Below are positions 25,271 to 44,870 of a stretch of DNA of 64,000 nucleotides, in pieces. The notes under the pieces are model-generated. The model searched no databases. It was given only the letters and a program-made list of their open reading frames with translations, and had not been told where the DNA came from. The number at the start of each line of letters is the position of its first letter. Position 1 is the first letter of the stretch. The translations under genes and the position numbers were made by a program. Origin of the DNA: a virus; the IMG/VR virus record IMGVR_UViG_3300002026_000020. The stretch is one strand, 5' to 3'.

Positions 25271-25348
25271 TTGACATTACTAAAAAGCTGTTATACTAAA
25301 CCTCAGAAGAAAGAAAAAGTAAGTGGTCGTGTGAACCGCTTATAAATA
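25271..25348 (+). promoter_or_regulatory. Promoters for tRNA array 1: TTGACA-N15-TATACT and late TATAAATA
   Basis: TTGACA 25271, TATACT 25292, TATAAATA 25341. Confidence 0.65.
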
Positions 25349-25372
25349 CCTATAACAAGGATTCAGATTTCA

Positions 25373-25447
25373 ATGACTACATGCACCTATAATAAGATAG
25401 CAAATAAAGGATGTGCCGAAGGTACAATCCTCGGGGGTGCGGTGTAA
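25373..25447 (+). CDS. Attenuator leader peptide 1 (MTTCTYNKIANKGCAEGTILGGAV)
   Basis: AAGGA RBS at 25357; 24 codons; 3' end complementary to the terminator 5' arm. Confidence 0.75.
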   Translation: MTTCTYNKIANKGCAEGTILGGAV

Positions 25448-25474
25448 CAAAGGTTCTCAAACCTAAGATTCACC

Positions 25475-25510
25475 GAAACCCCTGGCTAAAACCAGGGGTT
25501 TCTTCTTTTA
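25475..25510 (+). terminator. Intrinsic terminator (attenuator) upstream of tRNA array 1
   Basis: GAAACCCCTGG-ctaaaa-CCAGGGGTTTC followed by TTCTTTT. Confidence 0.9.
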
Positions 25511-25569
25511 CAACTTTATATAAGTAGTTTGATGTTTCTTCTTTTACAACTTTATATAAGTAGTTTGAT
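25498..25569 (+). repeat. Perfect 36-nt tandem duplication
   Basis: gtttcttcttttacaactttatataagtagtttgat twice. Confidence 0.95.
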
Positions 25570-25572
25570 TAT

Positions 25573-25646
25573 GCCGGTGTCGTATAACGGAAATACGAAA
25601 CATTGCCAATGTTTAGATAGGGTTTCGACTACCCTCACTGGCTCCA
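25573..25646 (+). tRNA. tRNA-Gly(GCC)
   Basis: Cloverleaf, AAACA-TTGCCAA-TGTTT, U73, CCA. Confidence 0.9.
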
Positions 25647-25649
25647 TAT

Positions 25650-25725
25650 GTTCCTATCGTCTAACGGTTTAGGACAGTAGACCCTCAATCTACTAATAGC
25701 GGTTCGAATCCGCTTAGGAACACCA
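25650..25725 (+). tRNA. tRNA-Glu(CTC)
   Basis: GTAGA-CCCTCAA-TCTAC, CCA. Confidence 0.88.
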
Positions 25726-25906
25726 AACGGTGACTCACACACCATAAACGCTAAGGCGAAGTGAGGGATTGAAAGATAGAAAATGGGATTATACTTATCC
25801 CTGTCAGCAACGATGAGCGAGCCATAAGACTCCGTGAAAGACACGGCAGGCAGACCTAAGTAGTAGTTGACACGATTGACAACTTTATATAAGTAGCTTG
25901 AATTAT

Positions 25907-25992
25907 GGGTGGTTCGGGTAGCGGCAATCTCAAAGCACTGTAAATGCTTCGCTCAAAAGGCTTCGCTGGTTCGAGTCCAGCACCACCCACCA
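25907..25992 (+). tRNA. tRNA-Tyr(GTA)
   Basis: AAGCA-CTGTAAA-TGCTT, long variable arm, CCA. Confidence 0.9.
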
Positions 25993-26028
25993 ATTATGGT
26001 TCCGTCAGTAATGACATAAAACTCACGA

Positions 26029-26114
26029 ACGAGGATAGGTCGCTCTTATCAGATTCGGGAGGAATCCTTCGACGAGGATAGGTCGCTCTTATCAGATTCG
26101 GGAGGAATCCTTCG
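26029..26114 (+). repeat. Perfect 43-nt tandem duplication
   Basis: acgaggataggtcgctcttatcagattcgggaggaatccttcg twice. Confidence 0.95.
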
Positions 26115-26186
26115 CCTAAAGCGGAGGGGAATCGCCATGCGTAGGTTTGTAGGCACGCTTCCAATAAAGAAAGCAACCTTCACCAT

Positions 26187-26277
26187 GCGTCCGTGCGTTG
26201 AGTGGCTGAAAACCTCCGACTCTTAATCGGAATGAGTTTATCTCACATCGTAGGTTCGAATCCTACCGGACGCACCA
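26187..26277 (+). tRNA. tRNA-Lys(CTT) with long variable arm
   Basis: TCCGA-CTCTTAA-TCGGA, 18-nt variable region, CCA. Confidence 0.85.
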
Positions 26278-26314
26278 TCAAAGGTTTTTCAAGTTTACCT
26301 ATAAACTTGTGCAT

Positions 26315-26405
26315 GCATCCGTGCGTTGAGTGGCTGAAAACCCCCGCCTTTTAAGCGGACGAGACTTGTTCTCCATCGTAGGTTCGAATCCTACCGGATG
26401 CACCA
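26315..26405 (+). tRNA. tRNA-Lys(TTT) with long variable arm
   Basis: CCGC-CTTTTAA-GCGG; paralog of the previous tRNA. Confidence 0.85.
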
Positions 26406-26641
26406 GACGCAGTTGACGGTACAACAAGAGGAAATAAACCGTATTGGCATTTCACTGGCTTCGGTCTGCCCAGCGGAGTGTCACGCTACCATAGGTAGAA
26501 ACTAATAAAGACCGATAGGTAAGGATGTAGTCAGCATAGACTACTGCGAAAGCGGTTCATCCGATGCCGAAATTTCATGCTGATAAGGTGCTGCAAGCGT
26601 TCGTCCTTTGCGCCAGCATACCCGACAATAAAGGACTTTAT

Positions 26642-26733
26642 GGGAACAGGACAGTAAGGAATCCACGGGGATTCACCGGATTGTAAACCCGGACCCTTCG
26701 GGGCACAAGGTTCGACTCCTTCCGTTCCCACCA
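26642..26733 (+). tRNA. tRNA-Tyr(GTA), atypical 8/4-like
   Basis: CCGGA-TTGTAAA-CCCGG, 4-bp T stem, extended D region. Confidence 0.65.
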
Positions 26734-26734
26734 A

Positions 26735-26820
26735 AATGCGTGTCTCGTACATCAGAGGGTTTCTGGTGGGTGTCTGCAAAACACATAGAGTTTGGGGTTC
26801 GACTCCCCCACGCATTTCCA
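26735..26820 (+). tRNA. tRNA-Cys(GCA), atypical 8/4
   Basis: AATGCGTG/CACGCATT acceptor, GTGT-CTGCAAA-ACAC, U73, CCA. Confidence 0.7.
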
Positions 26821-26823
26821 TAT

Positions 26824-26897
26824 GCCTGCGTAGTATAGTGTTATTACAACGCCTTTGTATCGCGAAAACGGGGGTTAGATTCCCTCCGTAGGCTCCA
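26824..26897 (+). tRNA. tRNA-Thr(TGT), weak anticodon stem
   Basis: GCCTGCG/CGTAGGC acceptor, loop TTTGTAT, CCA. Confidence 0.65.
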
Positions 26898-26951
26898 AAT
26901 ATTTCTGTCTCCCAACCACTTGTTAGTATAAATACTGGTAGGGAGATACAT

Positions 26952-27371
26952 ATGACTACATGCTTACATTGTGGAAAAGAACTTGTAATACATAAAGACA
27001 AAAATAAAAAGTTTTGTAACAATAAATGTCAGCAAGATTATCAATATGAACAAAAAGTAAAGTTATGGAAAGATGGAAGGCTAAAGGAAACCAGCGGTGA
27101 TTATCAAATAGCAAGAACTATTCGCCGGTATCTTTTTGAAAAACATGGTAATAAATGTTGTGAATGTGGTTGGGATAAAATAAACCCGATAACTGGTAAA
27201 TGCCCGTTAGAAGTTGAACATATAGATGGAAACCATGAAAATAATAAAGAAGAAAACTTAACTCTTCTTTGTCCAAATTGTCATTCATTGACTCCTACCT
27301 ATAAAGCATTGAATAGAGGAAAGGGTAGAAATCAAAGGATGAAAAGGTATAAAGAAGGAAAAACATTTTAG
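26952..27371 (+). CDS. HNH homing endonuclease
   Basis: LEVEHIDGNHENN..ENL.LLCPNCH. Confidence 0.9.
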   Translation: MTTCLHCGKELVIHKDKNKKFCNNKCQQDYQYEQKVKLWKDGRLKETSGDYQIARTIRRYLFEKHGNKCCECGWDKINPITGKCPLEVEHIDGNHENNKEENLTLLCPNCHSLTPTYKALNRGKGRNQRMKRYKEGKTF

Positions 27372-27374
27372 AAT

Positions 27375-27472
27375 GCTGCTTTAGCTCAGTTGGTAGAGCA
27401 ATAGTTTTGGTTGACTGAAATCAACTTCCAGTAAACTATAGGTCGTCTGTTCAAGTCAGACAAGCAGCACCA
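27375..27472 (+). tRNA. tRNA-Thr(TGT) with 22-nt insertion (27409-27430) in the anticodon
   Basis: Canonical D and T arms; ATAGT-TTT[GGTTGACTGAAATCAACTTCCA]GTAA-ACTAT. Confidence 0.8.
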
Positions 27473-27573
27473 GTGTCTCTTTGTTTCTCACCTTGCATAC
27501 AGGAGCATCCCTCAAGATGACTCAAACATGGTGTTGTTTCCTTTCGACATTATCAAAGAAAAGAAACAGGTAT

Positions 27574-27649
27574 AGGCGGTTAGTATACTAGGTGTTTACA
27601 TTCGTCTGTTAAACGAAAGAAGGTGGTTCGAATCCACCGCTGCCTGCCA
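27574..27649 (+). tRNA. tRNA-Asn(GTT)
   Basis: TTCGT-CTGTTAA-ACGAA, G73, CCA. Confidence 0.85.
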
Positions 27650-27654
27650 AGCAT

Positions 27655-27743
27655 TGAAGAGTACCCGAGTGGTAGCAGGGGTCTGACTGTTAATCAGAAA
27701 GCAGAAATGCTCGCCGTAGGTTCGAATCCTACCTCTTCAGCCA
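27655..27743 (+). tRNA. tRNA-Asn(GTT) with long variable arm
   Basis: TCTGA-CTGTTAA-TCAGA; AGCA-GAAA-TGCT variable arm. Confidence 0.85.
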
Positions 27744-28110
27744 AAACAAAGCTGGATAAACAATCCGCCCTGCCAACCTTCACCTGTCCTCGTAGGGGAT
27801 AGTAAACTTCTCTCCAGCATCCGAAAGGATTTGAGGGGTTAGTAAAGGTAAAAGACCTTCCGTAGTAGCCGAGCGTGTCGGCGGCGGAGCACCATTTCAA
27901 CGGATACGATGAATCCGACAGCCGCAATGGGCTGTGAAAATTAGTTGCTGGGTATAGAAGTATCTACTCAGCGGCAACCAACGAGCCATCACCGAGAACT
28001 TTAGCTGAGAGGCAAAGCGTTTCACTCATAAAAAGAAACCAGCTTCACCATTTTTGGATTACTGTGATATAATGGGTATAAATACTTTGTAGCAAAGGAG
28101 ATTTACCCAC

Positions 28111-28644
28111 ATGACAGAAAATCATAGAAAGCTAGTTGAAGCAAATTGTATTCATTGTAATAAAATAATACTAACCAGACCGGATAGAGTAAAAAAGTTT
28201 TGCTCAAAACTATGTAAAAAAATACATAGAAATGTTGAAGTGAAATGCACCAATTGTGGTAAATTAACTCTAAAGAAAAAATCGGCTCTTGCCAATTCAA
28301 AACATGAAATATATTTTTGTAGTAGAGAGTGTAAAGATTTCGCTCAAAGTATCAAGGGTGGTTGTGAGATAATAAGACCTTCTCACTATGGAAATGGTGG
28401 TTTACATTTTTACAAAAGCCTAATAAATAAAACTGACAATCCTAAATGTTGCGATTGTGGTGAAACAAAAAGATATACATTATGTGTTCATCATATAGAT
28501 AGTGATCGTGAAAATAATTCAGTAGATAATTTAGAAATAGTTTGTGCAAATTGTCACATGAAAAGACATCTAAAACTTATAGATGGTGAGTGGCAATATG
28601 GCGCAAAGTATCTTACACCAAGAGAAGATTTAAAAATCATATAA
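28111..28644 (+). CDS. HNH homing endonuclease
   Basis: VHHIDSDRENNSVDNLEIVCANCH. Confidence 0.9.
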   Translation: MTENHRKLVEANCIHCNKIILTRPDRVKKFCSKLCKKIHRNVEVKCTNCGKLTLKKKSALANSKHEIYFCSRECKDFAQSIKGGCEIIRPSHYGNGGLHFYKSLINKTDNPKCCDCGETKRYTLCVHHIDSDRENNSVDNLEIVCANCHMKRHLKLIDGEWQYGAKYLTPREDLKII

Positions 28645-28645
28645 T

Positions 28646-28721
28646 GGGGGCACATGTACCTCGCAGGCGAACCGCACTTGCAATGCAGTTGTGATGGGTT
28701 GAATCCCCATTGTCTCCACCA
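28646..28721 (+). tRNA. tRNA-Ala(TGC), atypical D arm
   Basis: G3:U70 pair, GCA-CTTGCAA-TGC, CCA. Confidence 0.7.
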
Positions 28722-29040
28722 TTTTTCAGTAGAAGCAAATCGTAAGGTACGGCATACATAAACAAATAAGGGTATGCTGGGAGCGGCGACACCAAGCCAG
28801 GGTCTATGCAATAGGCAACACTACATTCAATATAGTAGTTGTGTAAATAAAAACACTAAAGTCACTTTACGGTGGGAAGCCTTAGTGGGTGTGGAGAAAA
28901 TCTCCTTTATTGAGCCTAAAAACTCTAAGCCCTATGGTTGTACTTTGTCGTGACGAGGGTAATCCCATAGGGGAATATCCCAAGTTTAGGCTTCGAACAG
29001 CGGTGTCCACGCGACCAACCCGGCTGACTGAAAACCATTT

Positions 29041-29465
29041 AGGTGTGTAGTATGTGTCGTATAAATGTGTTTGGCGATGCTCAGTCGTTTCATCCTGCTT
29101 GTTTGGATGGGCGGCACCACAATGGACACAGCGATGTAAACCAAACACTGCGCCAGTAAGTACGCAGGGCTACCAGCCCTCGAAGAGTAGAGTATGTGCG
29201 CCTCTATCGCTTACGCTTCGGGGTTTGTTCCCGAAAGTCACACCCAAACCCATTTTTGTTTACCATGTGTGTCGTATAATGTTCTGTGCGAAGTCCGGCG
29301 AAATGACCATCACGGCTCCTGTGAGTCGATAAAGGGTGGTCATCTACCCTCAAAATGTAATAAAGACACAGTAAGCATAGAACAGCGCAGCCAGTACAGC
29401 GGTACTTTTAATTCCGTAGGAGTAGAGTATGTGCGCCTCTATCACAAGGCATGGTAAACAAAAAC
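29041..29465 (+). ncRNA. Two tandem copies of an unknown pseudoknotted RNA motif
   Basis: Shared TGTGTCGTATAA, GACACAG, GCCAGTA and GAGTAGAGTATGTGCGCCTCTATC, with covarying stems. Confidence 0.65.
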
Positions 29466-29471
29466 ATTCAT

Positions 29472-29603
29472 GTGGTGGTCGTAATAATGAAACGAAGTAA
29501 AGACTGTTATCTAAGTAAGTCTTGAAGAAACCGTTTCGTGGAAGTTACAATACGCGGCAATGCAATCGCTGAGATGCTGGTTCGAGTCCAGCCCACCACT
29601 CCA
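29472..29603 (+). ncRNA. tRNA-like RNA (acceptor and T arm with large insert)
   Basis: GTGGTGG/CCACCAC-T-CCA and GCTGG-TTCGAGT-CCAGC. Confidence 0.6.
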
Positions 29604-29742
29604 TTACAGTGTATCACACGCCTGTCAACTTGACTGGCATGGTGGGAAAAATAAGTATTGATAAATAAAAATACCCTCTACAATAGAGGCATGAGCAACG
29701 AAAGAAGCTCGGTTGACAAATATATATGAGTAGCTTGAATAT

Positions 29743-29817
29743 GGGTTGCAAGCATTAGGGCTGATGCAATGGTCTTTTAAACCATGGAAGTAGGATCGAC
29801 CCCTACGCGACTCACCA
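29743..29817 (+). tRNA. tRNA-Lys(TTT)
   Basis: ATGGT-CTTTTAA-ACCAT, CCA. Confidence 0.85.
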
Positions 29818-29922
29818 TAAGAGATTACAGGACAACTCTCTATAAACACTGTACCATTTAGCGAATACAGAAATCAGTTTCGGGTACTAGACATAAATCC
29901 GTCAACAAAAACAACCAATCAC

Positions 29923-29999
29923 GCGCCTAGTGTTCGCCGGTTGTGGACGGTGGTCTTATAAACCATTCTGAGGGTGTTCAACTCACCATAGGCGTACCA
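29923..29999 (+). tRNA. tRNA-Ile(TAT)
   Basis: GTGGT-CTTATAA-ACCAT, CCA. Confidence 0.8.
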
Positions 30000-30147
30000 T
30001 TTTGTAATCGTTGAAGAAGAGGATAGCGCAACTCATAGAACCTTCGGGGGAGAGTTGCCGTATCAATGCGATTCCTTCATTCAACCGTGTTCTCCAGCGG
30101 AACCCGATAACATTGATACGAGTTGCATCTGGATATACAACTCACAT

Positions 30148-30225
30148 GCACCCATCGTCTAACCCGGCTCAGGACAGGAGACTTTCATTCTCCCGATTGG
30201 GGTTCAAATCCCCATGGGTGTACCA
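30148..30225 (+). tRNA. tRNA-Glu(TTC)
   Basis: GGAGA-CTTTCAT-TCTCC, CCA. Confidence 0.9.
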
Positions 30226-30284
30226 TATGACGAAGTTTGTTGGTTTGATACTCAGAGCTAATTAGATAGCGAAACCAACATCAT

Positions 30285-30359
30285 GCTCTATTAGAACAGT
30301 GGCTAGTTCATTCGGCTTTCAACCGAAAGAAGAGGGATCGAAACCCTTATAGAGTACCA
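30285..30359 (+). tRNA. tRNA-Glu(TTC)
   Basis: TTCGG-CTTTCAA-CCGAA, CCA. Confidence 0.85.
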
Positions 30360-30402
30360 AGTGTAAACGCATAAACCCTATCTGGCGGTAGGTGGCACGC
30401 AT

Positions 30403-30477
30403 CGCGGGGTGGAGAAGTGGTAACTCGCTTGGCTCATAACCAAGAGAACGCAGGTTCAAATCCTGCCCCCGCAACCA
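30403..30477 (+). tRNA. tRNA-fMet(CAT), initiator-like
   Basis: CGCGGGG start with C1:A72 mismatch, CTCATAA loop. Confidence 0.9.
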
Positions 30478-30506
30478 TACAAGTCGAGACACATGTCTCG
30501 CAAATT

Positions 30507-30580
30507 TGCGCGGTGGTGTAACGGTAGCATAATAGCCTCATAAGCTTTTGATCAGGGTTCAAATCCTTGCTGCGCTCCCA
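30507..30580 (+). tRNA. tRNA-Met(CAT)
   Basis: AGC-CTCATAA-GCT, CCA. Confidence 0.8.
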
Positions 30581-30803
30581 TTGAGTCTTCTTTCATAACG
30601 AGGGTAGTAGTCTCGTTGTAGTTTCTTTGACTGAAAAAGAAACGCTATACTAACATCTGGTGCCGGGAAAGTGAATGTGGCGTGAGCCAACCTTTGCCGA
30701 GATTCACCACCTTTTATCCCTCCAGCCTCTTCACAATGCAGAAACGGAGACTTGAAAAAACAAGTATCGCTCATAGGGAACGATGAGTGTGGGAGCCTTT
30801 TAT

Positions 30804-30879
30804 GCGTCAATAGCTCAGTTGGTAGAGCGGAACTTTTCCAAAGTTCGGGTCGCAGGTTCAAATCCTGTTTGACGCTCCA
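30804..30879 (+). tRNA. tRNA-Gly(TCC)
   Basis: GAACT-TTTCCAA-AGTTC, U73, CCA. Confidence 0.92.
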
Positions 30880-30938
30880 TTTAAAATAGTTCAATAGTCA
30901 AGTATCGAACTAATATAAATATATGGTATAATATATTT

Positions 30939-31589
30939 ATGTTCTATACCATCTACAAGATAACAAACCGAGTAAACAACAAGATTTATGTCGGCAAACA
31001 TCAAACCGAAACCCTTGACGATTGTTATATGGGTTCTGGAACTCTTTTACTTAGAGCGATAGAGAAGTATGGTATTGATAAGTTTGATAAAGAAATACTA
31101 TATGTATTTGACAATGAAGAACAAATGAATAATATGGAAAAAGAAATTGTCAACGAAGAGTTTTTACTAAGGGAAGATGTTTATAACTTGAAGGTTGGTG
31201 GTGACGGTGGGTTTGGATATATAAACTCAAAAGATACCACCGAGACTACGAAAAAAGGGAGAATAGAATGTGATAAAATAATGTTGAGTAAGTATGGAGA
31301 TGATTGGAGACAAATCTTAGGGAAAAAAGCTGGCAATGCTTCGTGGGATAAACGAAAAAAGACTGGCAATATCCTTATAGGAAATCCATACTCATTCTTA
31401 GGTAAAAGACACACTGATGGAGCTAAAAAAATAATAGGGCAAAAAAATTCTATACATCAATCCGGAAATAAAAATTCTATGTACGGAATGATGTGGATTT
31501 ATAATTTAGAAACTTTAGAAAGTAAAAGGATTGGTAATAGAGAAGAAATACCTATTGGTTGGGTTAAAGGAAGAAAAATAAAAAAATAA
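30939..31589 (+). CDS. GIY-YIG (Seg-like) homing endonuclease
   Basis: TIYKITN..NNKIYVGKH..YMGSG, YNL..GG.GG. Confidence 0.9.
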   Translation: MFYTIYKITNRVNNKIYVGKHQTETLDDCYMGSGTLLLRAIEKYGIDKFDKEILYVFDNEEQMNNMEKEIVNEEFLLREDVYNLKVGGDGGFGYINSKDTTETTKKGRIECDKIMLSKYGDDWRQILGKKAGNASWDKRKKTGNILIGNPYSFLGKRHTDGAKKIIGQKNSIHQSGNKNSMYGMMWIYNLETLESKRIGNREEIPIGWVKGRKIKK

Positions 31590-31592
31590 GAT

Positions 31593-31668
31593 GCAGCAGT
31601 AACTCAGAGGCTAGAGTGCGACTTTTCCAAAGTCGATGTCGAGATTTCGAAATTCTCCTGCTGCACCA
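31593..31668 (+). tRNA. tRNA-Gly(TCC)
   Basis: CGACT-TTTCCAA-AGTCG, CCA. Confidence 0.85.
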
Positions 31669-31799
31669 GTTTCGGTTGAATATGTGGATGGGTGCCACCC
31701 TAAAAAGTCGCTTTCAACCAACCCCCTAGAAATAGGAAGTATTCACATTATTCATTGTGCTATTAGGTTCTCTTTATCCTAAGAAACAAAAAAGAATAT

Positions 31800-31875
31800 G
31801 TAGAGCAGTAGCATTAAGTAATGCACCCGTTGTTTATACGGGACTAAGTTGGTTCAATCCCAACCCTCTGCACCA
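31800..31875 (+). tRNA. Atypical tRNA, anticodon TTT (Lys?)
   Basis: CCCGT-TGTTTAT-ACGGG with G33; T arm and CCA present. Confidence 0.5.
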
Positions 31876-32381
31876 GCCAGCCCCTTGAAAAAGGGCTACT
31901 TGTGATACTACAAGGAACAGTAAGGGGATTCTGCACAGGGTTATGAGGTATCGCCAGCACCTATAGCTGGTACGAGCCGAGTAATGTTCTGTGAGTGAAA
32001 ACGCAAGGGCAGAACAGCCTGACCAGTCATTCATCTGGCAAACGGACCCAAAGTATCAAAACCATCGACGCACGATGATGAGAACAAACCTACGAGTTTT
32101 TCAGTAGTCACGAAGGATACAGATCGTATCAACTGAGTGATGAAAGGGCAGAGAAAAACTAAGCGACCTTCAAAGTAGAGTCTCCCGAGTTTCGTGCGGG
32201 TCGGATCAAACGGGATTCGGTTGAGGCTCCGCTTCTTTTTCCAACCGTGGAGGATCCCGAAGTATCGGAAATTCGAGACATGAATACACGGATACCATGT
32301 CATCTTATGTCAACCACAGCACAGAGAGTGCCACACTTCTTATAAAGAACTAAGAAAGTGTCGTAAAGGGGGTTGACACAT

Positions 32382-32458
32382 GCTCCCCTAGCTCATCTGG
32401 ATAGAGCAAATGTTTTCTAAACATTAGGTAGAAGGTTCGAGTCCTTCGGGGAGCGCCA
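32382..32458 (+). tRNA. tRNA-Arg(TCT)
   Basis: AATGT-TTTCTAA-ACATT, CCA. Confidence 0.92.
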
Positions 32459-32465
32459 TTTACAT

Positions 32466-32540
32466 TGCCTCTTAGCTCAGTGGTAGAGCGATTGACTGTT
32501 AATCAATTGGTCCGGGGTTCGAATCCCTGAGAGGCAGCCA
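32466..32540 (+). tRNA. tRNA-Asn(GTT)
   Basis: ATTGA-CTGTTAA-TCAAT, CCA. Confidence 0.93.
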
Positions 32541-32839: not shown

Positions 32840-32914
32840 GCCCGAGTAAGCTAATGAATAGACTGACTCTTTCCTAAAGAGTATATCTTGGTTTGATTCC
32901 AAGCTTGGGTGCCA
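32840..32914 (+). tRNA. tRNA-Arg(CCT)
   Basis: ACTCT-TTCCTAA-AGAGT, CCA. Confidence 0.8.
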
Positions 32915-36880: not shown

Positions 36881-36886
36881 TTTTAT

Positions 36887-36966: not shown

Positions 36967-37021
36967 TTTTAAATCGAACCAAATATAAATACTATGATAT
37001 AATATATCATGGAGGTTCGAT

Positions 37022-37648
37022 ATGAGTTACGAAGACATAAAGAAGTATAGGAGAAGGTTCAAGGAAAAGATTGTAATGTTAATGGGTGGAAAATGTATGT
37101 GTTGTGGATATAGCAAGTGTATAAAGGCTATGGATTTACATCATGTTGATCCAACAAAGAAAGAATTTACTATCAGTCAAATGATCATCCTTAACTGGAA
37201 GCGTATCTTTAAAGAATGTCAAAAATGTGTTTTAGTATGTTCTAACTGTCATCGGGAGATACATGATAATGTAACACAATGCCCAGAAATGGTTGATATT
37301 AAATACGAATCACTGGCTCCAGATAGAAGAATAGATTGGGAATCACTTAACTTAGATAAAGACGCCATGACACTTAATGTTAAAGAACTCTCTAAAAAAT
37401 ACGGAATCAGTAGAACGGCAATACATAAAAAGTGTAAAGAAAGTAATATAAAACTTAAGGAAATTATACGCCCGTCAAAGTTTATAGTAGATTATGAGAA
37501 GTTGAAAAAACTTGTTACCGAAATGCCGTTTACAAAAATAGGTGATATGTATGGAGTTTCTGATAACGCAATTCGTAAAAGGTGTAAAGTTTTGGGAATA
37601 AAAATACCTAGATTTGGAAGAGGGTATTGGACTAAGAATAAACAATGA
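37022..37648 (+). CDS. HNH homing endonuclease
   Basis: DLHHVDP..KCVLVCSNCHREIH plus HTH tail (GVSDNAIRKRC). Confidence 0.88.
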   Translation: MSYEDIKKYRRRFKEKIVMLMGGKCMCCGYSKCIKAMDLHHVDPTKKEFTISQMIILNWKRIFKECQKCVLVCSNCHREIHDNVTQCPEMVDIKYESLAPDRRIDWESLNLDKDAMTLNVKELSKKYGISRTAIHKKCKESNIKLKEIIRPSKFIVDYEKLKKLVTEMPFTKIGDMYGVSDNAIRKRCKVLGIKIPRFGRGYWTKNKQ

Positions 37649-37664
37649 TATAATGAAATCATAA

Positions 37665-37760
37665 CGGCGCATAGGTCAGTCTGGTAGACCGCTTGCTTGG
37701 TGAACTAATATTCACTTCCATGGGAGCAAGAAGTCGCAAGTTCGAATCTTGCTGCGCCGA
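37665..37760 (+). tRNA. tRNA-Pro(TGG) with 22-nt insertion (37699-37720)
   Basis: CTTGC-TT[GGTGAACTAATATTCACTTCCA]TGGGA-GCAAG; C1-G72, A73; no encoded CCA. Confidence 0.8.
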
Positions 37761-37842
37761 CTCTCACCTAGAAATAGGTTGTTATTACCGTCGTTTAGTA
37801 ACTGTAAAAAACCTTCCGAAATGAAGGTAAACGGCATTTCAT

Positions 37843-37914
37843 CAGGCTGTGGGATAATGGTAGTCCACTCGTTTTGGAAGCGAGGAAAAGTTGGTTCGAT
37901 TCCAACCAGTCTGA
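37843..37914 (+). tRNA. tRNA-Pro(TGG)
   Basis: CTCGT-TTTGGAA-GCGAG; no encoded CCA. Confidence 0.8.
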
Positions 37915-37984
37915 TTCTTTCAATGGGGATGAAACGCCCCAGCCCATCACAAGCCTCTTTACAATGCTCAACCCGTGATGTCGT

Positions 37985-38060
37985 GGTCCTTTCGTATAGT
38001 GGTTTATTACATCTCCCTGTCACGGAGGAAATGCGAGTTCGATTCTCGCAAGGATCGCCA
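37985..38060 (+). tRNA. tRNA-Asp(GTC)
   Basis: TCTCC-CTGTCAC-GGAGG, G73, CCA. Confidence 0.92.
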
Positions 38061-38077
38061 TTCAGTTTCAAGGTTAT

Positions 38078-38152
38078 ACCCCCATCATATAAAGGCTATT
38101 ATGATAGATTGTCGATCTATTCATGCGGTTTCGAAATCCGCTGGGGGTGCCA
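38078..38152 (+). tRNA. tRNA-Asp(GTC)
   Basis: ATAGA-TTGTCGA-TCTAT, G73, CCA. Confidence 0.8.
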
Positions 38153-38179
38153 AAAATAAATAGTCATGGAGGTATTCAT

Positions 38180-38332
38180 ATGGAATCATTCATGATGATA
38201 TGTTCAATAGCAGCAAGCGTAACTGCTATTATCGTAAACGCTTACACAATCTTCACGATTCGTAAGCACCTTGGTAAGTTAGCCAAGGAAGGATATGAGA
38301 AGGTTGAGGATAAGATAAAAAAGATTCTATAA
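38180..38332 (+). CDS. Small single-pass membrane protein
   Basis: GGAGGT RBS; hydrophobic N-terminus and basic tail. Confidence 0.6.
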   Translation: MESFMMICSIAASVTAIIVNAYTIFTIRKHLGKLAKEGYEKVEDKIKKIL

Positions 38333-38335
38333 CAT

Positions 38336-38411
38336 GGGTTGTTGGTGTAAGTGGTCTACACGCTCGCCTGAAGAGCAAGAGAATACGGTTCGATTCCGTG
38401 ACAACCCACCA
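38336..38411 (+). tRNA. tRNA-Phe(GAA)
   Basis: Loop CTGAAGA, T arm, CCA. Confidence 0.85.
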
Positions 38412-38649
38412 TGCAAAGGAAGTATGTCTTGCTAAAAACCCCAATGGGGGTATTAGTGTAAAGGTTAGCACGCCCCCATCAAAGGGGCAGTTCGGGTTCG
38501 ATTCCCGTTTTGAGGTTTACCTCACAAGGCAAAATGAGTAGGGAGGCGACGGCTGAACGAATACTTCCGTAAGTGGATGATTGCTCGCCACTATAAAAGA
38601 CTAAGAAGCTTTGGTTCTCAGATTGCCGAATACCTTAAAGTCGGCGCAT

Positions 38650-38768
38650 TGGGGGTTCGTCTAATGGTAGGACGAGAGACTTTGCAAGACAAAGGAATCA
38701 TATGGTTCAACTCCATAGTCTTGCGCCAGGATCTCTCTGTGGGGGTTCGAATCCCTCACCCCCAACCA
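38650..38768 (+). tRNA. tRNA-Gln(TTG) with nested 45-nt mini-tRNA (38684-38728)
   Basis: AGAGA-CTTT[GCAAGAC...TATGG-TTCAACT-CCATA-GTCTTGC-G-CCA]GGA-TCTCT. Confidence 0.8.
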
Positions 38769-38825
38769 TTTTCGGTTACATATAAATAATAGTGTATAAT
38801 ATATGTAACAGATAAGGAATAGAAT

Positions 38826-39536
38826 ATGTCACAAAGAGCAAAACGAAGCATAATATGGAAAATAACAAAAGAAAATCTTATAAATGTTGTAAAGACATCT
38901 AAATCTTTTAGTGAAATACTAAAACACTTCGGTATGATAAACAAAGGTGGAAACTGTATAACTCTCAAAAAAAGATGCGGGGAGGAAAATATAGATATAT
39001 CACATATACCAATTGGTAATTCTTCTAATAGGGGGAGAAAGTTTATAAAAGACAAGACGCCATTAGAAAAAATATTAGTAGTCGATAGTAACTTTTCAAG
39101 AGTTCATCTAAAAAAGAGAATTATTGAAGAAAATATTATAGATTATAAATGTAAAAAATGTGGCAATACTGGAGAATGGCTTGGTGAGAAAATATCCTTA
39201 CATTTAGAACACATAAATGGAGTTTCTAATGATAATAGATTAGAAAATATATGTTTCTTATGCCCTAACTGTCACAGTCAAACTGAAACTTATGCTGGAA
39301 AAAACTTGCCGAGAGTAAAATATAATTGTTCTGAATGTGGAAAAGTAATAACGAAGTGCTGTAAGAGTGGGAAATGTCTCTCATGTTTGGGAAAGAATAA
39401 AAGGGTTTTCGATGCTACGAAAGAAACTTTAGAATCTCTAATAGAAACAAAACCTATGACTAAAATTGGCGAGATGTTTGGTGTTTCTGACAATGCTATA
39501 CGAAAAAGATGCAAAAAATTAGGAATATCTTTATAA
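38826..39536 (+). CDS. HNH homing endonuclease
   Basis: LHLEHINGVSNDNRLENICFLCPNCHSQT. Confidence 0.9.
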   Translation: MSQRAKRSIIWKITKENLINVVKTSKSFSEILKHFGMINKGGNCITLKKRCGEENIDISHIPIGNSSNRGRKFIKDKTPLEKILVVDSNFSRVHLKKRIIEENIIDYKCKKCGNTGEWLGEKISLHLEHINGVSNDNRLENICFLCPNCHSQTETYAGKNLPRVKYNCSECGKVITKCCKSGKCLSCLGKNKRVFDATKETLESLIETKPMTKIGEMFGVSDNAIRKRCKKLGISL

Positions 39537-39541
39537 AACAA

Positions 39542-39966
39542 TTTTTGTTGATTAGACCGAAACGTAGGCTTAGAAGCAGCCATGGAGAAATCCACATAGG
39601 GAAACTTATGCATCTAAGGAGTCCGCACACTATATGGGTTATGAGCGAGCAACCGACTGTGAGTGTTTCGAAATGTTCGCAAGAGCATATTCGAGTGAAC
39701 CGATAAAAAGGAAGACCAAGAAACGCATTCAGCCAGCGGATTGAACAACTCGTCACATTGTCGCAAGTAAGCGAACCCAACTATGAGGAAAAAGATGCTA
39801 ACAAAGGCTCGTGGCGTCGAAAGAACCAAAGCATGTTAGAACAAATCCTCTCTTGAAACCGGGAGCAAACTTTACAAAGCGTTATTACCGGCTCAAGTGG
39901 GTGTATGGTAAAGAGTAGTCAAACCAGCGGTTTAGCGTAACAGCACATCGGATAAGTCAACAAAAA
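39542..39966 (+). ncRNA. Large ncRNA containing a mimic of 23S rRNA helices 42-44 (L11/L10 binding site)
   Basis: GTAGGCTTAGAAGCAGCCAT...CTAAGGAG...AGCGTAACAGCACA; terminal helix tttttgttgatt/agtcaacaaaaa. Confidence 0.75.
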
Positions 39967-39975
39967 CAATTTCAT

Positions 39976-40053
39976 ACAGGTGCGGACTGTGGCGTAAGTC
40001 GAGAACCCTCCAAAAGTTCTGCTATTCAGGTTCGATTCCTGACACCTGTGCCA
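39976..40053 (+). tRNA. tRNA-Trp(CCA)
   Basis: GAAC(C)-CTCCAAA-(A)GTTC, G73, CCA. Confidence 0.75.
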
Positions 40054-40181
40054 AAGTAAACGTATAACTGGCGTTCTTGAGGGTTCGATTCCCTTCGCAG
40101 CCTTAGCGGGTTGTCCTCGGTGGAGGGCTGCATGCACCCAATGATGCAAGGTTCGATTCCGTGATACATTTACCCTTTTAT

Positions 40182-40306
40182 GAGAGAGTGGAGGAAATTA
40201 GTATACTCACCGCTATAAACGGCGGCGTCTCTTTGGGTGTACAACCACTGACGGAGTGATATGCTCCGTAGCAGACATGTAGGTTCGAACCCTACCTCTC
40301 TCACCA
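40182..40306 (+). ncRNA. Leu-like tRNA derivative with very large variable region
   Basis: GAGAGAG/CTCTCTC-A-CCA, T arm, abnormal anticodon loop. Confidence 0.55.
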
Positions 40307-40361
40307 TTTTTATTAGAGAAAAGTGCGATACTCGTATAAATACTAATAGGAGTATCGCACA

Positions 40362-40946
40362 ATGACAATATATCTTCTATACAAGATAATCAACAAAGTA
40401 AATGGAAAAATTTATATTGGCGCTCATCAAACTGAAAATGTTGACGATGGGTATATGGGATCCGTGAATCTCATACAAAAGGCAATAAAAAAATATGGAT
40501 TGGAAAACTTTGAGAAGCATATCATAATGTTATTTGATAATCAAAAAGATATGTACGATATGGAATCAATAATAGTAAATGAGGATTTCGTAAAGAGAGA
40601 TGATGTGTATAATATAAAAGAAGGTGGTATTGGAGGGTGGAAGCATATCCAAATGGATCCAGAGGCAAGTGAATCTCGTAAAAAAAGAGCAGGAGATTTA
40701 TTCAGAAGGTTACATGTAGAAGGTAAAATAAAGTATGACACTTTTACTGGTAGAAACCATTCGGAGGAATCTAAAATAAAAATAGGAATGGCAAATGCTA
40801 TAAAACAGAGTGGGGATAAAAATTCTAACTATGGTAAATGCTGGATATACAACGATACAGAGAAGAAGAGTATAAGTGTTCCAAAGAATGAAGTTGATGT
40901 GTGGATTACAAAAGGCTGGAAAGTTGGAAGAAAAATAAAGTGGTAA
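40362..40946 (+). CDS. GIY-YIG homing endonuclease
   Basis: LYKIINKVNGKIYIGAH..YMGS; paralog of 30939. Confidence 0.9.
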   Translation: MTIYLLYKIINKVNGKIYIGAHQTENVDDGYMGSVNLIQKAIKKYGLENFEKHIIMLFDNQKDMYDMESIIVNEDFVKRDDVYNIKEGGIGGWKHIQMDPEASESRKKRAGDLFRRLHVEGKIKYDTFTGRNHSEESKIKIGMANAIKQSGDKNSNYGKCWIYNDTEKKSISVPKNEVDVWITKGWKVGRKIKW

Positions 40947-40949
40947 CAT

Positions 40950-41025
40950 GGTGGTGTTCGTATAATGGTAGTATTATCGGTCTGTGAATCCGAGGGAGGC
41001 GGTTCGATTCCGCTACACCACCCCA
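40950..41025 (+). tRNA. tRNA-His(GTG)
   Basis: G-1:C73, loop CTGTGAA, CCA. Confidence 0.88.
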
Positions 41026-41030
41026 ATCAT

Positions 41031-41195
41031 GTTGTTTGTATGCTAAGTGGCAAAGCAGGAGGAATAAAACCGGGATGAAAGGTTGAAAACCGCCGAGAAT
41101 GAATAGTCAACTGGAAACGGGGTAGGAGAATGGCAGTATGCGCTCCTACTGACAAAAATCATTCAGTGAAGGTTCGAGTCCTTCCAACAACACCA
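41031..41195 (+). ncRNA. tRNA-like RNA with large central insert
   Basis: GTTGTT/AACAAC-A-CCA, D-like CTAAGTGGCAAAGC, GAAGG-TTCGAGT-CCTTC. Confidence 0.55.
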
Positions 41196-41270
41196 CTTTC
41201 GGATAGAGGCAGAAAAACTCCAGGGTATAAGAATGACACTGATCGTCAAACCCAAACCAAAGGAGGATGT

Positions 41271-41657
41271 ATGCTGATAGAAGAAATAAAGGATCGTAAT
41301 GACCTTCAAAACATTACCATCGCACAAGACGATGACAACGATTACGAAGAGAGTGGCTACATCGCCGTATGGGATGGGAAGAGAGCCGCAATCGCAAGGT
41401 ATTCTCACTGCTCTTGTTACGGAACGTGGACATCTTTGAACGGCGGGGACTATAGTAAGACTGGAAACGGTATTACTTGGGACTGGTTCGGATCAAAGCG
41501 TCAACTCCTAAGACTGGCTAGAGAGAAGCTTGATCCTCATGCTCCATTCGGAACCCGCAAGGCAGACGAAAAGGATTATGATTATGACCACTTGCTGAAT
41601 GTGTACCAGCAGATTCTTGAGTGGCATGAAAAGACAAAGAGGGGAAAGAAGTCGTAA
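41271..41657 (+). CDS. Hypothetical protein
   Basis: AGGAGG RBS; HCSCYG motif. Confidence 0.75.
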   Translation: MLIEEIKDRNDLQNITIAQDDDNDYEESGYIAVWDGKRAAIARYSHCSCYGTWTSLNGGDYSKTGNGITWDWFGSKRQLLRLAREKLDPHAPFGTRKADEKDYDYDHLLNVYQQILEWHEKTKRGKKS

Positions 41658-41705
41658 CTGGTAAGGTGCTTCTGAATCCGTTACACCGAAAACAACGGGC
41701 TTTAC

Positions 41706-41789
41706 GGGCAAGTGACGTTATAACGAATGGCACAGTTTGCCGTCTCAAACACGGTCGTTTTGTGGGTTCGAGTCCCACCTTGCCTACCA
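41706..41789 (+). tRNA. tRNA-Leu(CAA)
   Basis: GCCGT-CTCAAAC-ACGGT, enlarged D loop, CCA. Confidence 0.75.
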
Positions 41790-41792
41790 TAT

Positions 41793-41869
41793 GGTGAATA
41801 GTAGCATATACATGCGCTCCCTATTTGTGGGAGAATAAATATCGGTAATCAACCCGATCTTCACCGCCA
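41793..41869 (+). pseudogene. Degenerate tRNA-like cloverleaf
   Basis: GGTGAA/TTCACC-G-CCA with non-canonical loops. Confidence 0.4.
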
Positions 41870-41969
41870 GTGTCTATCACATCATCCTAACCGTGTGTGG
41901 GCGAAATAGACTCTAAACAATGCCGTTGCTATTCGCAGCGTAAGTCGGCATAGCGGTGGGACCATTTAC

Positions 41970-42062
41970 GGGGATGTGGCGAAACGGCTGAAACGCGGCG
42001 GATTTAAAATCCTCTACAGACTAATGATCACGGTGCAGGTTCGAATCCTGTCATCCCTACCA
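41970..42062 (+). tRNA. tRNA-Leu(TAA)
   Basis: GGA-TTTAAAA-TCC, long variable arm, CCA. Confidence 0.88.
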
Positions 42063-42083
42063 CTTTCACAGAAAGGAAACCAT

Positions 42084-42344
42084 ATGAAAAGAGATAGAGC
42101 GTTTCGTATAGACCAGAAGGAGAGAGTCATCAAGAACCGTAAGCGGTTGATGAAAGATACAGATTTACAACATCGTAATGAACATCAAGACAATAGGTAT
42201 AACAAGCGTCATCCATATGACTGCGGTAATCCACAGTGTCTTGTATGTCACAGTGAAAAGGTTTTCGATGAAAAGACTGTTGAAGATTTGAGAGTTGAAG
42301 ATTCATATAGGGATCAAGTAAGAGATGAGTTCGAGGGCGATTAG
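42084..42344 (+). CDS. Small basic zinc-binding protein
   Basis: AAGGA RBS; HPYDCGNPQCLVCH. Confidence 0.7.
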   Translation: MKRDRAFRIDQKERVIKNRKRLMKDTDLQHRNEHQDNRYNKRHPYDCGNPQCLVCHSEKVFDEKTVEDLRVEDSYRDQVRDEFEGD

Positions 42345-42353
42345 CCCTCATAT

Positions 42354-42443
42354 GGAAGGTTGGCTGAGTGGTCGATAGCAGCGAATTACTAATTCGACAT
42401 GCGGTAAAACGCATCGGGGGTTCGAATCCCTCACCTTCCGCCA
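42354..42443 (+). tRNA. tRNA-Ser(ACT)
   Basis: CGAA-TTACTAA-TTCG, Ser-type body, G73, CCA. Confidence 0.85.
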
Positions 42444-42551
42444 AAATAACATAACCCTAACATGGGGTATGTTAGAATGATGTTACATCACTCCAAAAAG
42501 ATAGTTTGCCATATTGTTAGTTTGCCGTATAAATAACAGTAGGAGATTATT

Positions 42552-43166
42552 ATGGCATTAGGATATACAGACGAAACTTTCGTTATTATTGTTAAAGAAT
42601 CCTTTTCTATTAGGGAATGTTTGAAAAAGTTAGGATTGAAACATACGGGTGGTAACTATAAAACATTTTACAATAAAGTAAACAATCTAAAGTTAGATAC
42701 ATCGCATTTTACGGGGCAGGCGTATATGACTGGAAAGCCTAACATAAGGTCTAAAAAGAGATTGTTGGTTGATATATTGAAAGATGGTGTGGAATATAAG
42801 AGTCACGAATTGAAACTTAGATTGATAAAGGAAGGAATGAGGGATCATAAGTGTGAAGTATGTGGGAATACTGAATGGATGGGTAAAAGCATACCATTAG
42901 AATTGGATCATATAAATGGTGTTCATACTGACAACCGTATAGAAAATCTTCGCATACTATGTCCGAATTGTCACGCTCAAACGGAAACATACTGTTCAAA
43001 AAATATAAAGAAAGAAAAAATGACGAGTGAGCAGAAAAAAATAAATGATAGTAAAAGAAGAATGAAATTTGTTTGTGTGGATTGTGGTGGACCGTGTACT
43101 AAGACTAAACATGGTATATGTAAAAAGTGTACTCTAAAAAAATACAAAAAGGTTACGGGGGTGTGA
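42552..43166 (+). CDS. HNH homing endonuclease
   Basis: LELDHINGVHTDNRIENLRILCPNCHAQT. Confidence 0.9.
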   Translation: MALGYTDETFVIIVKESFSIRECLKKLGLKHTGGNYKTFYNKVNNLKLDTSHFTGQAYMTGKPNIRSKKRLLVDILKDGVEYKSHELKLRLIKEGMRDHKCEVCGNTEWMGKSIPLELDHINGVHTDNRIENLRILCPNCHAQTETYCSKNIKKEKMTSEQKKINDSKRRMKFVCVDCGGPCTKTKHGICKKCTLKKYKKVTGV

Positions 43167-43242
43167 TGTAATGGCAGCCATGCAACGCTTAGAACGTTGT
43201 GAGAGAAATCTCGTGCAGGTTCAAGTCCTGTCGCCCCTACCA
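43157..43242 (+). tRNA. tRNA-Leu(TAG)
   Basis: CAACG-CTTAGAA-CGTTG; overlaps the HNH stop codon. Confidence 0.92.
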
Positions 43243-43457
43243 GTTTCTTGTTGAGTTACCATCTGCGCCAAAATCGCGGGTGTAAGTTATCCTGGCTAAA
43301 CTATGACGCCATTGTGCGATCAAAACGCGGGTTCGATTCCCGAAAAAATAGCCAACAAGAAAAACCGCAGAGTTGTTGCGGGATATAAGTGAATCAATCG
43401 CAGTTGGGAGTAATTACCCCATCGTAATAGTTGCCGTGCGTGAATCGGCAACATCAT

Positions 43458-43545
43458 GTGTGAGTGGCGTAACTGGCAGCCGCGCTAGATTGAGGTTCTA
43501 GTGGAATAACATTCCGTGGGGGTTCAACTCCCCCCTCGCACACCA
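43458..43545 (+). tRNA. tRNA-Leu(GAG)
   Basis: CTAGA-TTGAGGT-TCTAG, CCA. Confidence 0.92.
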
Positions 43546-43548
43546 TTT

Positions 43549-43867
43549 TTGTATATCAGACAATCGCAAGAGGACTCCAAACTCTTGAGGAAAGTCGGGG
43601 CACCATAAAAAAGTATACCAGCTAACGGCTGGCACATCTTTCGGTAGGTGTGAGGAAAGGGCAGTAAGAAATATACCGCCGATGACTCCGCAAGGAGAAC
43701 AGGTAAGGGTTGAAAACACGACGTAAGAAACCGTGCTTTGTATAGTAATATACATCGAATGTAACCCCTATACGGTGCAAGGCAGTAATTGCCGCTTGAG
43801 GGTGTCAGTGATGACACTCCTAGACAAATGATTGTCCAACGACAGAACCCCGCTTACCGATATACAA
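43549..43867 (+). ncRNA. rnpB: RNase P RNA
   Basis: CR-I GAGGAAAGTC, AGACAAATGATTGTC, CR-V ACAGAACCCCGCTTA; P1 gtatatc/gatatac. Confidence 0.92.
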
Positions 43868-43931
43868 TACCGATTTTTATGATATAATGTAATCAAACCA
43901 TTATAAATACATTATGGAGGGTTTGATTACA

Positions 43932-44660
43932 ATGAGAAATAAAAGTATAATATGGACAATATCTAAAGACAAGTTGCAGGAAATGTGCAATACATGCTCT
44001 TCATATAAAGACATCCTACTGTTACTAGGATATAGTAGTTGTACTGGCGTCGGGGAGATGCTAAAAAAGCGTATAGAAAAAGATTGTATTGACACTAAAA
44101 CATTAGAACTTAATAGGATAAATAATAGACATTGTATTCTAAGAAAAGTTAGATATCAGTATGACAACAAAGATGTTTTTATCTCCGATAGTAAATGTTG
44201 CAGAGGTTCTGTTAAAAGACATATTATAAAAAATAATCTAATGGATTACAAATGTGAAAAATGTGGTATTGGTGATATGTGGGAAGGTGAAAAAATATCA
44301 CTTCAACTTGATCATAAAAATGGGGTGAACAATGATAATAGATTAGAGAATCTAAGATTCCTATGTCCAAACTGTCACAGTCAAACACATACTTTTAGTG
44401 GAAGAAATACTAGAAAAGAAAAAGCAATAAAGGTAAAAGAGTCTGCGGACGAAAAAGAAAATAGATATAAAACCCTTATGAGATTTCAAGTATCATTCGA
44501 AGAACTAAAAAATGATGTAGAAAATATGCCTCTTACCGATATTGCAAAAAAATATAAAGTAAGCGACACCGCTATTAGAAAAAGATGTAAAGCATATGGT
44601 ATAGAATTGAAGGGTCGTGGATATTGGTCTAAAAATATAAAACACTCACCGATGGTGTAA
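43932..44660 (+). CDS. HNH homing endonuclease
   Basis: LQLDHKNGVNNDNRLENLRFLCPNCHSQT. Confidence 0.9.
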   Translation: MRNKSIIWTISKDKLQEMCNTCSSYKDILLLLGYSSCTGVGEMLKKRIEKDCIDTKTLELNRINNRHCILRKVRYQYDNKDVFISDSKCCRGSVKRHIIKNNLMDYKCEKCGIGDMWEGEKISLQLDHKNGVNNDNRLENLRFLCPNCHSQTHTFSGRNTRKEKAIKVKESADEKENRYKTLMRFQVSFEELKNDVENMPLTDIAKKYKVSDTAIRKRCKAYGIELKGRGYWSKNIKHSPMV

Positions 44661-44720
44661 TGGTAACATTTTTGTTTCTGACACAAAAGACTAGAGGTTC
44701 GAGTCCTCTTCGGTGAACCA
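44646..44720 (+). tRNA. tRNA-Gln(CTG)
   Basis: TTTGT-TTCTGAC-ACAAA, U1-A72, CCA. Confidence 0.88.
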
Positions 44721-44794
44721 GATGTTGCGGTAGCACCCAACTGATTTGAGAGTATTACGGGTAAACTCAAAAAGAAAAACAAATACCCGACCAC

Positions 44795-44870
44795 GGTGGC
44801 TATCGTCCAATGGTTAGGACATCGGATTGTGGCTCTGAGAATGGCGGTTCGAATCCGCTTAGTCACCCCA
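44795..44870 (+). tRNA. tRNA-His(GTG)
   Basis: G-1:C73, TCGGA-TTGTGGC-TCTGA. Confidence 0.92.

Follow-up and report, generated by a model that had tools for sequence, protein, structure and literature searches.

Two phage tRNA arrays open with leader cassettes laid out like multi-codon transcription attenuators

It is an open question what use some phages make of their dozens of tRNA genes and by what means these genes are controlled. The answers given at present are compensation for codon usage, substitution for host tRNAs that have been degraded and evasion of anticodon nucleases; to our knowledge, none of them explains control of the tRNA output. The question is posed in a particular form by a 64-kb stretch of viral DNA (IMG/VR record IMGVR_UViG_3300002026_000020; hereafter "the window", meaning the whole stretch analysed), which is part of an uncultured large myovirus and holds two tRNA arrays. 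Both arrays open alike, with a TATAAATA box followed by a short open reading frame (ORF), a small hairpin, a strong intrinsic terminator and then the tRNAs. What could such a cassette do? The end of each ORF is complementary to the terminator behind it, and its codons, in one frame only, match the tRNAs of the array that follows. We propose that each cassette is a ribosome-mediated transcription attenuator, set between a late-type (TATAAATA) promoter and its tRNA array and gauging the decoding done by the array's own tRNAs, and we put the probability of this reading at about 0.7.

Cassette anatomy, alternative folds and codon match

The TATAAATA octamer was found at 23 sites against 3.6 expected, and most of them lie 12-45 nt upstream of an ATG with a Shine-Dalgarno sequence, a placement which we take to be the layout of T4 late promoters. 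The leader ORFs of the two window cassettes (W1 and W2; Table 1) start 24 nt and 16 nt downstream of their boxes, respectively, and the terminators behind them are the sole strong plus-strand terminators within 24000-43900. Relatives of the phage were located via the ribonucleotide reductase (RNR) gene preceding cassette 1. They include L019 and L020 (metagenome contigs whose reductase is 97% identical), L002 (a 214-kb IMG/VR contig; reductase 79%) and G004 (a complete 236-kb genome; reductase 60%). The first and second cassettes of G004 are labelled G4a and G4b.

In W1, W2 and L002, the terminator sequences differ, and yet the 5' arm of each is complementary to the 3' end of its ORF, stop codon included. 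As a MAFFT alignment of seven cassettes left the pairing strands of L002 and G4a out of register, duplex energies were calculated for each cassette instead of counting pairs. With all 27-nt windows of the 64-kb sequence as controls, the W1 duplex (-21.8 kcal/mol) was equalled by 0.02% of 12,735 windows and the W2 duplex (-20.2 kcal/mol) by 0.06%. The duplex of L002 (-15.8 kcal/mol) was the best of 4,066 windows (0% as good). Weaker duplexes were obtained for G4a and G4b, with 1.7% and 0.3% of control windows as good.

Folding of the leaders up to the terminator loop gave one long helix, with the ORF end and stop codon on one strand, the terminator 5' arm on the other and the small hairpin at the tip. 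In W1, W2, L002 and G4a, no fold has a lower energy than this antiterminator helix as long as the 3' arm is missing from the transcript, and the hairpin in the gap between stop codon and terminator is also present in W2, L002 and G4a with a sequence unlike that of W1. When a ribosome footprint at the stop codon was masked, the terminator alone remained in the fold. Antiterminator (-20 to -22 kcal/mol) and terminator (-19.5 to -22.8 kcal/mol) are similarly stable. The distance from stop codon to terminator is 25-31 nt in four independent cassettes; because it is 27-30 nt in W1 and W2, the footprint of a terminating ribosome would extend over the antiterminator strand but leave the terminator free. 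An earlier note on this DNA had described the cassette layout, and every element was found in its place and in the same order before both arrays, although the ORF starts it gave were off by one base. The complementarity of the last leader codons to the terminator 5' arm, which it stated, and the alternative terminator and antiterminator states, which it suggested folding, are seen in the energies and folds given above.

Do the leaders name the tRNAs behind them? Array 1 encodes tRNAs for Gly, Glu, Tyr, Lys, Thr, Asn, Ile-UAU, Met, Arg-UCU/CCU and Ala, together with a Cys-like gene, and array 2 those for Ser, Thr-GGU, Val, Arg-ACG, Ile-GAU-like, Pro, Asp, Phe, Gln, Trp, His and Leu. Anticodons were parsed from ARAGORN output, standard wobble rules were applied, and the codons decodable by only one of the arrays were counted. 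Leader 1 contains 15 array-1-only codons and 5 array-2-only codons and leader 2 contains 5 and 24, respectively (one-sided Fisher test, 7e-5). Among 200,000 random pairs of in-frame windows taken from long ORFs of the phage, a fraction of 6e-5 reached the observed own-array score. The other five frames of the leader DNA (two sense, three antisense) gave p values of 0.06-0.99, so that the match belongs to the reading frame and not to base composition. In leader 2, a cognate codon is present for 19 of the 20 distinct array-2 anticodons, which none of 100,000 random windows achieved (P<1e-5). Codons 2-19 of leader 1 specify array-1 amino acids only, if Cys is counted via its sub-threshold gene. 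Six of the seven off-set residues (L and V in leader 1, N and G in leader 2) fall within the last five or six codons; they cluster where RNA pairing dictates the sequence.

The close relatives L019 and L020 retain both cassettes. Leader 2 differs from its L020 counterpart at 13 bases, nine of which are synonymous third-position differences, and the two amino-acid changes (S to T and S to L) both stay within the array-2 set; judged from this comparison, the leader-2 frame is under purifying selection. The stem of terminator 2 in L020 carries a double compensatory change (T:A to A:T). The variants of leader 1 found in L019, L020 and sequencing run X5 (T2I, A10E) are non-conservative and bring in residues that belong to the array-1 set; the codon used for Ile in T2I (ATT) is itself read by an array-2 tRNA. 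DNA contigs of four sequencing runs yielded the same leader-1 variants as L019 and L020 only.

The more distant relatives show that leader codons change with array content. In L002, the box, a 38-codon ORF, a small hairpin, a terminator, a promoter-like box and the tRNAs follow each other, with a terminator sequence unrelated to those of the window. Its array mixes the two tRNA sets of the window, and its leader covers 15 of 17 anticodons (0/100,000 random windows; P<1e-5); a Lys(CUU) tRNA is present in the array and three AAG codons in the leader. In G004, the tRNAs are partitioned differently from the window. The first block consists of Leu, His, Leu, Ser, Leu, Ser, Ser and Trp tRNAs, and the 21-codon first leader has a run of Leu, Ser, Trp and His codons with cognates for eight of the eight anticodons, a coverage reached by 0/200,000 random windows. 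The remaining 29 tRNAs stand for 17 amino acids, 16 of which are present in the second leader (38 codons). The comparison of own with other array for the G004 leaders gave 7e-4, and alternative frames were without signal. Ahead of the second G004 block (L013:560-610, minus strand), overlapping 16- and 38-codon frames both resemble the array set. The 16-codon frame starts 4 nt past a CATAAATA box and could be leaderless; it was set aside since the stop codon of the 38-codon frame lies at the usual distance from the terminator, a choice that is not proven.

With regard to codons, the earlier note fared as follows. All 20 amino acids are indeed represented when the two leaders are taken together, and the residues it listed for each are present, its lists having missed L and V in leader 1 and N and G in leader 2. 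The array contents are as it listed them, with the qualification that Cys lies below threshold, Arg(ACG) and Gln(UUG) appear in ARAGORN at a relaxed threshold and Ile(GAU) was read by eye. That the leaders sample their own arrays agrees with the in-frame statistics above (7e-5 and 6e-5), and the covariation with array content that it suggested looking for in related phages is seen in L002 and G004.

Table 1. Features of the two leader cassettes and their arrays (window positions)
Feature	Position	Strand	Basis
TATAAATA promoter-type box, cassette 1	25341..25348	+	motif over-represented; conserved in L019, L020
Leader ORF 1, 24 codons and TAA	25373..25447	+	
Antiterminator 5' strand, cassette 1 (last five codons and stop codon)	25430..25447	+	duplex energy, fold
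Small 5-bp hairpin between stop codon and terminator, cassette 1; tip of antiterminator helix	25451..25464	+	fold
Intrinsic terminator 1: 11-bp GC-rich stem (25475-25502), 6-nt loop, T tract	25475..25509	+	-19.5 kcal/mol
Two tandem copies of conserved 30-nt promoter-like box, up to 5' end of first tRNA	25507..25572	+	
tRNA array 1 with interspersed homing-endonuclease ORFs; first tRNA at 25573	25573..33702	+	
TATAAATA promoter-type box, cassette 2	34883..34890	+	conserved in L020
Leader ORF 2, 33 codons and TAA	34907..35008	+	
Antiterminator 5' strand, cassette 2 (last five codons and stop codon)	34991..35008	+	duplex energy, fold
Small 5-bp hairpin between stop codon and terminator, cassette 2	35010..35022	+	fold
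Intrinsic terminator 2: 12-bp GC-rich stem (35033-35062), 6-nt loop, T tract	35033..35067	+	-22.8 kcal/mol
Conserved promoter-like box 3' of terminator 2	35066..35095	+	
tRNA array 2 with RNase P RNA and homing-endonuclease ORFs; first tRNA at 35117	35117..44870	+	

Ribosome-mediated attenuation and its alternatives

Four features of a leader-peptide attenuator are thus recognizable in silico: a short leader ORF, codons that report on supply, an intrinsic terminator and an alternative antiterminator. In the proposed mechanism, transcription would begin a few bases past the TATAAATA box and a ribosome would translate the 24- or 33-codon leader. A ribosome that reaches the stop codon would cover the antiterminator strand, the terminator hairpin would form and transcription would stop short of the array. 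If the ribosome stalls earlier, since a cognate charged tRNA is scarce, the free strand would pair with the terminator 5' arm around the small hairpin and the polymerase would enter the array; readthrough would likewise be expected when no ribosome is loaded. Because the leader is written in codons of its own downstream tRNAs, the array would supply its own tRNA set through a self-limiting loop with OR-gated control. As to what might set off the stalling during infection, one may speculate about anticodon nucleases or starvation.

A different role of the terminator is suggested by the sequence behind it. A conserved 30-nt box, located at 25507-25572, 25876-25906, 29713-29742 and 35066-35095, ends at or near the mature 5' end of a tRNA. 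It stands right after both terminators and, twice inside array 1, occurs alone 30-31 nt upstream of the tRNAs at 25907 and 29743. On the plus strand it is located only ahead of tRNAs, and L019, L020 and L002 have retained it; the 36-nt tandem duplication seen in the window is a single copy in L019 and L020. A scan of IMG/VR with the box retrieved only the contig of L002 itself and two contigs without tRNAs. The box may be a tRNA-specific promoter, starting at or just before the tRNA. It is then conceivable that the ORFs are translated and mirror the arrays, while the terminator is constitutive and insulates the array's own promoter from late transcription arriving from upstream, the ORF serving another purpose, for example, a test translation that feeds another circuit. 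The position of the box, the strength of the terminators and the lack of support for an anti-antiterminator fit this idea. However, a plain insulator needs neither an ORF end complementary to the terminator arm nor fixed spacing, and the complementarity is far above chance and kept in L002 with another terminator sequence, with the stop-to-terminator distance constant across the four cassettes. We consider insulation unlikely as the whole explanation of the cassettes.

Still less probable, in our view, is that the cassettes work with other logic or through another factor, that is, that leader translation promotes readthrough, that termination depends on Rho or a protein, or that the leader acts post-transcriptionally on the processing or stability of the tRNA precursor. 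The direction of control in our proposal is deduced, and the RNase P RNA in array 2, together with the box abutting mature tRNA 5' ends, indicates that processing is organised around these sites. Such schemes have to contend with the geometry of the leaders, in which a ribosome on the stop codon, with a reach of about 12-15 nt in the 3' direction, would cover the antiterminator strand, not the terminator 25-31 nt away, and with the terminators themselves, which are canonical intrinsic ones with T tracts. The least credible of the alternatives takes the ORFs for small late genes of the usual kind (micropeptides), or for frames that arose by chance ahead of unremarkable terminators, with a match that stems from composition or from the choice of frame and boundary. 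It can draw on the TATAAATA boxes ahead of many ordinary genes, on amino-acid sets so large that residue-level tests of single leaders reach only P 0.008-0.04 (W1, G4b) and on the second, overlapping G4b frame, but it is contradicted by a match confined to one frame in both phages, by anticodon coverages (19/20, 15/17 and 8/8) that not one of 100,000-200,000 random gene windows attained, and by peptides that share no common sequence at homologous positions and whose replacements are non-conservative and yet belong to the amino acids of their own array.

Several observations weigh against attenuation as proposed here. Pairings of the trp-type region 1 (anti-antiterminator), between the early ORF and the antiterminator strand, are no better than those of control segments (fraction 0.06-0.54); with its duplexes at chance level, region 1 was dropped from the model, and as it is unsupported, untranslated transcripts would read through by default. 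Leaders 1 and 2 have Shine-Dalgarno sequences that are either weak or unfavourably spaced. Leader 1 taken alone is marginal at the codon level (11 of 15 anticodons, P 0.06), and its codons ACT, ACC and ATC are read by array-2 tRNAs. As most regulatory codons occur once, the sensitivity to a partial shortage would be low. The box with the look of a promoter behind each terminator implies that the leader may control only part of the tRNA output: if it is a promoter, the arrays would be transcribed constitutively or with other timing, and the leader would therefore gate only the contribution of the TATAAATA promoter. Two more distant relatives (L022 and L038; 64%) have a plain promoter before the first tRNA and lack the leader, and in T4, the 97 nt before the first tRNA contain no short ORF with a strong terminator. 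Moreover, metagenomes are the only source of this phage. Ribosome-mediated attenuation remains the reading we prefer.

tRNA genes and neighbouring RNAs

The phage occurs in microbial-mat and freshwater metagenomes, and DNA and protein searches of GenBank phages did not find a close relative. The window encodes a gp5-type baseplate hub, a wedge protein and a class II RNR. Contigs of relatives that were found via the baseplate gene were without tRNAs, and a scan of IMG/VR with the exact terminator returned one unrelated terminator after a metabolic gene (L001), which was discarded as a chance match. Nine HNH or GIY-YIG (SegE-like) homing-endonuclease ORFs lie among the tRNAs (26952-44660), most with their own upstream TATAAATA box, and most of the length differences between the window and L019/L020 are due to the presence or absence of such ORFs. 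It was considered whether leader 1 might be a remnant of a homing endonuclease; its first four codons are common with the ORF at 26952, there is no likeness beyond them, and the idea was rejected.

ARAGORN detects 43 tRNA genes and a transfer-messenger RNA (tmRNA) in the window; a further four tRNAs, as well as a bacterial-type RNase P RNA, come from Rfam. The Cys entry of array 1 is a tRNA-like gene (26735-26820) below default thresholds, with the loop GCA and an extended D region. In array 2, Arg(ACG) and Gln(UUG) are Rfam matches that ARAGORN finds at a relaxed threshold only, and for Ile(GAU) (36887-36963) and a second Arg(UCU) (36802-36877), which are Rfam matches as well, the anticodon loops were read by eye; these two adjacent genes (36802-36963; loops UCU and GAU) are poor in the D arm. 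Further peculiarities are found among the tRNAs. Two Lys tRNAs of 91 nt (26187-26277 and 26315-26405) have long variable arms. In two tRNA-Thr genes, the anticodon loop contains a 22-nt insert that forms a small hairpin, and one tRNA-Gln has a 45-nt insert (27375-27472, 37665-37761 and 38650-38765); all three inserts are too short for group I introns. A suppressor-type tRNA with the anticodon CUA lies just past array 2 (45505-45578, plus strand) and also in L002 (L002:16870-16942); it may serve amber read-through or recoding in this phage group.

Other structured RNAs were noted on the plus strand. The RNase P RNA is of bacterial class A and is located in array 2 right after tRNA-Leu(GAG) (43548-43872; Rfam 187 bits against a cut-off of 100). 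The tmRNA (49019-49385), found by both ARAGORN and Rfam (116.7 bits), encodes a 10-residue tag with an Ala-Ala end. A match to the Rfam abiF RNA motif lies in the gap between tRNA-Pro and tRNA-Asp (37945-37981; 38.7 bits against a cut-off of 37). Between a 150-codon gene and cassette 2, a structured RNA of about 200 nt (34610-34812) has an 11-bp closing helix and UUCG loops; its folding z-score is -4.4 (none of 200 shuffles folds as well), it has no Rfam match, and it is kept in the 97% relative (L020:12150-12340).

Closed-loop tRNA supply and its known counterparts

The cassettes invite a wider view, towards which we lean by only a little: phage tRNA arrays would be closed-loop supply units, in which a roster leader checks the decoding by its own array codon by codon and opens the terminator on any failure. 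Such a device might be general to unrelated tRNA-rich phages (the T4-type mat phage described here, its 60-79% relatives and phiCbK) and might also serve to sense the loss of host tRNAs, be it by anticodon nucleases or the shut-off of host tRNA synthesis, to name two examples. If this is true, a testable control principle would follow, namely, demand-driven tRNA synthesis with one loop per tRNA subset, and classical attenuation would be extended from amino-acid to tRNA supply, with the number of amino acids sensed rising from between one and three to a dozen. Leaders could then predict which tRNAs share one transcription unit, flag non-canonical tRNAs, such as the Cys-like gene here, and serve in synthetic sensors of decoding capacity.

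The literature searched in full text contains no description of attenuators ahead of tRNA genes or arrays, as the earlier note had supposed for multi-codon attenuators of tRNA arrays; this is absence from that literature, not proof. Partial counterparts are available. T-box riboswitches bind uncharged tRNA directly, without translation and with one tRNA per element. The cassettes resemble them in that transcription antitermination would report the state of particular tRNAs, but a search of the window with the T-box model RF00230 gave no hit at the gathering threshold, and none with E<=1 was obtained in 25000-46000. In the pheST operon of E. coli, control is by an attenuator whose pheM leader has Phe codons in a row. 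This attenuator is similar in applying leader-peptide attenuation to a gene of the translation apparatus, and different in sensing one amino acid and in having a synthetase, not tRNA genes, as its target. The tRNA cluster of T4 (NC_000866, 70908-72530) is likewise that of a T4-type myovirus and is likewise interrupted by a homing-endonuclease gene (seg); the T4 genome also has TATAAATA-type late promoters.

In the cultured Caulobacter phage phiCbK (JX100813), terminators annotated by the depositors stand directly ahead of three tRNA blocks. A 32-codon ORF, whose core is rich in F, V, I and Q, lies upstream of Phe-Val-Ile-Ile-Val-Gln-Gln, and gp083 (45 codons), rich in S, L, P and K, lies upstream of Pro-Pro-Lys-Lys-Leu-Leu-Leu-Ser-Ser, a likeness between ORF and block that was judged by composition and that we count in favour of the attenuator reading. 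In contrast to the window, phiCbK is an unrelated siphovirus with a GC-rich genome, the stop codon of gp083 is 68 nt before the terminator, and the end of gp083 is not complementary to the terminator arm.

Multivalent attenuators are known from enterobacterial amino-acid operons: the ilvGMEDA leader contains Ile, Val and Leu codons and the thr leader Thr and Ile codons, and trpL, hisL, leuL and pheL belong to the same class of leaders. The phage cassettes differ from the ilv and thr types in that they would regulate tRNA genes and not biosynthetic enzymes, in that a run of codons for one to three amino acids is replaced by a roster of 10-12 amino acids and up to 19 anticodons, mostly as single codons, and in being phage-borne, behind a late-type promoter and with region 1 unsupported. 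With these attenuators they share a short leader laid out for translation, codons naming what the operon supplies, an intrinsic terminator and a mutually exclusive antiterminator next to the leader end, and, if our proposal is correct, also the sensing of more than one amino acid and a choice between the two states that is made by the position of the ribosome.

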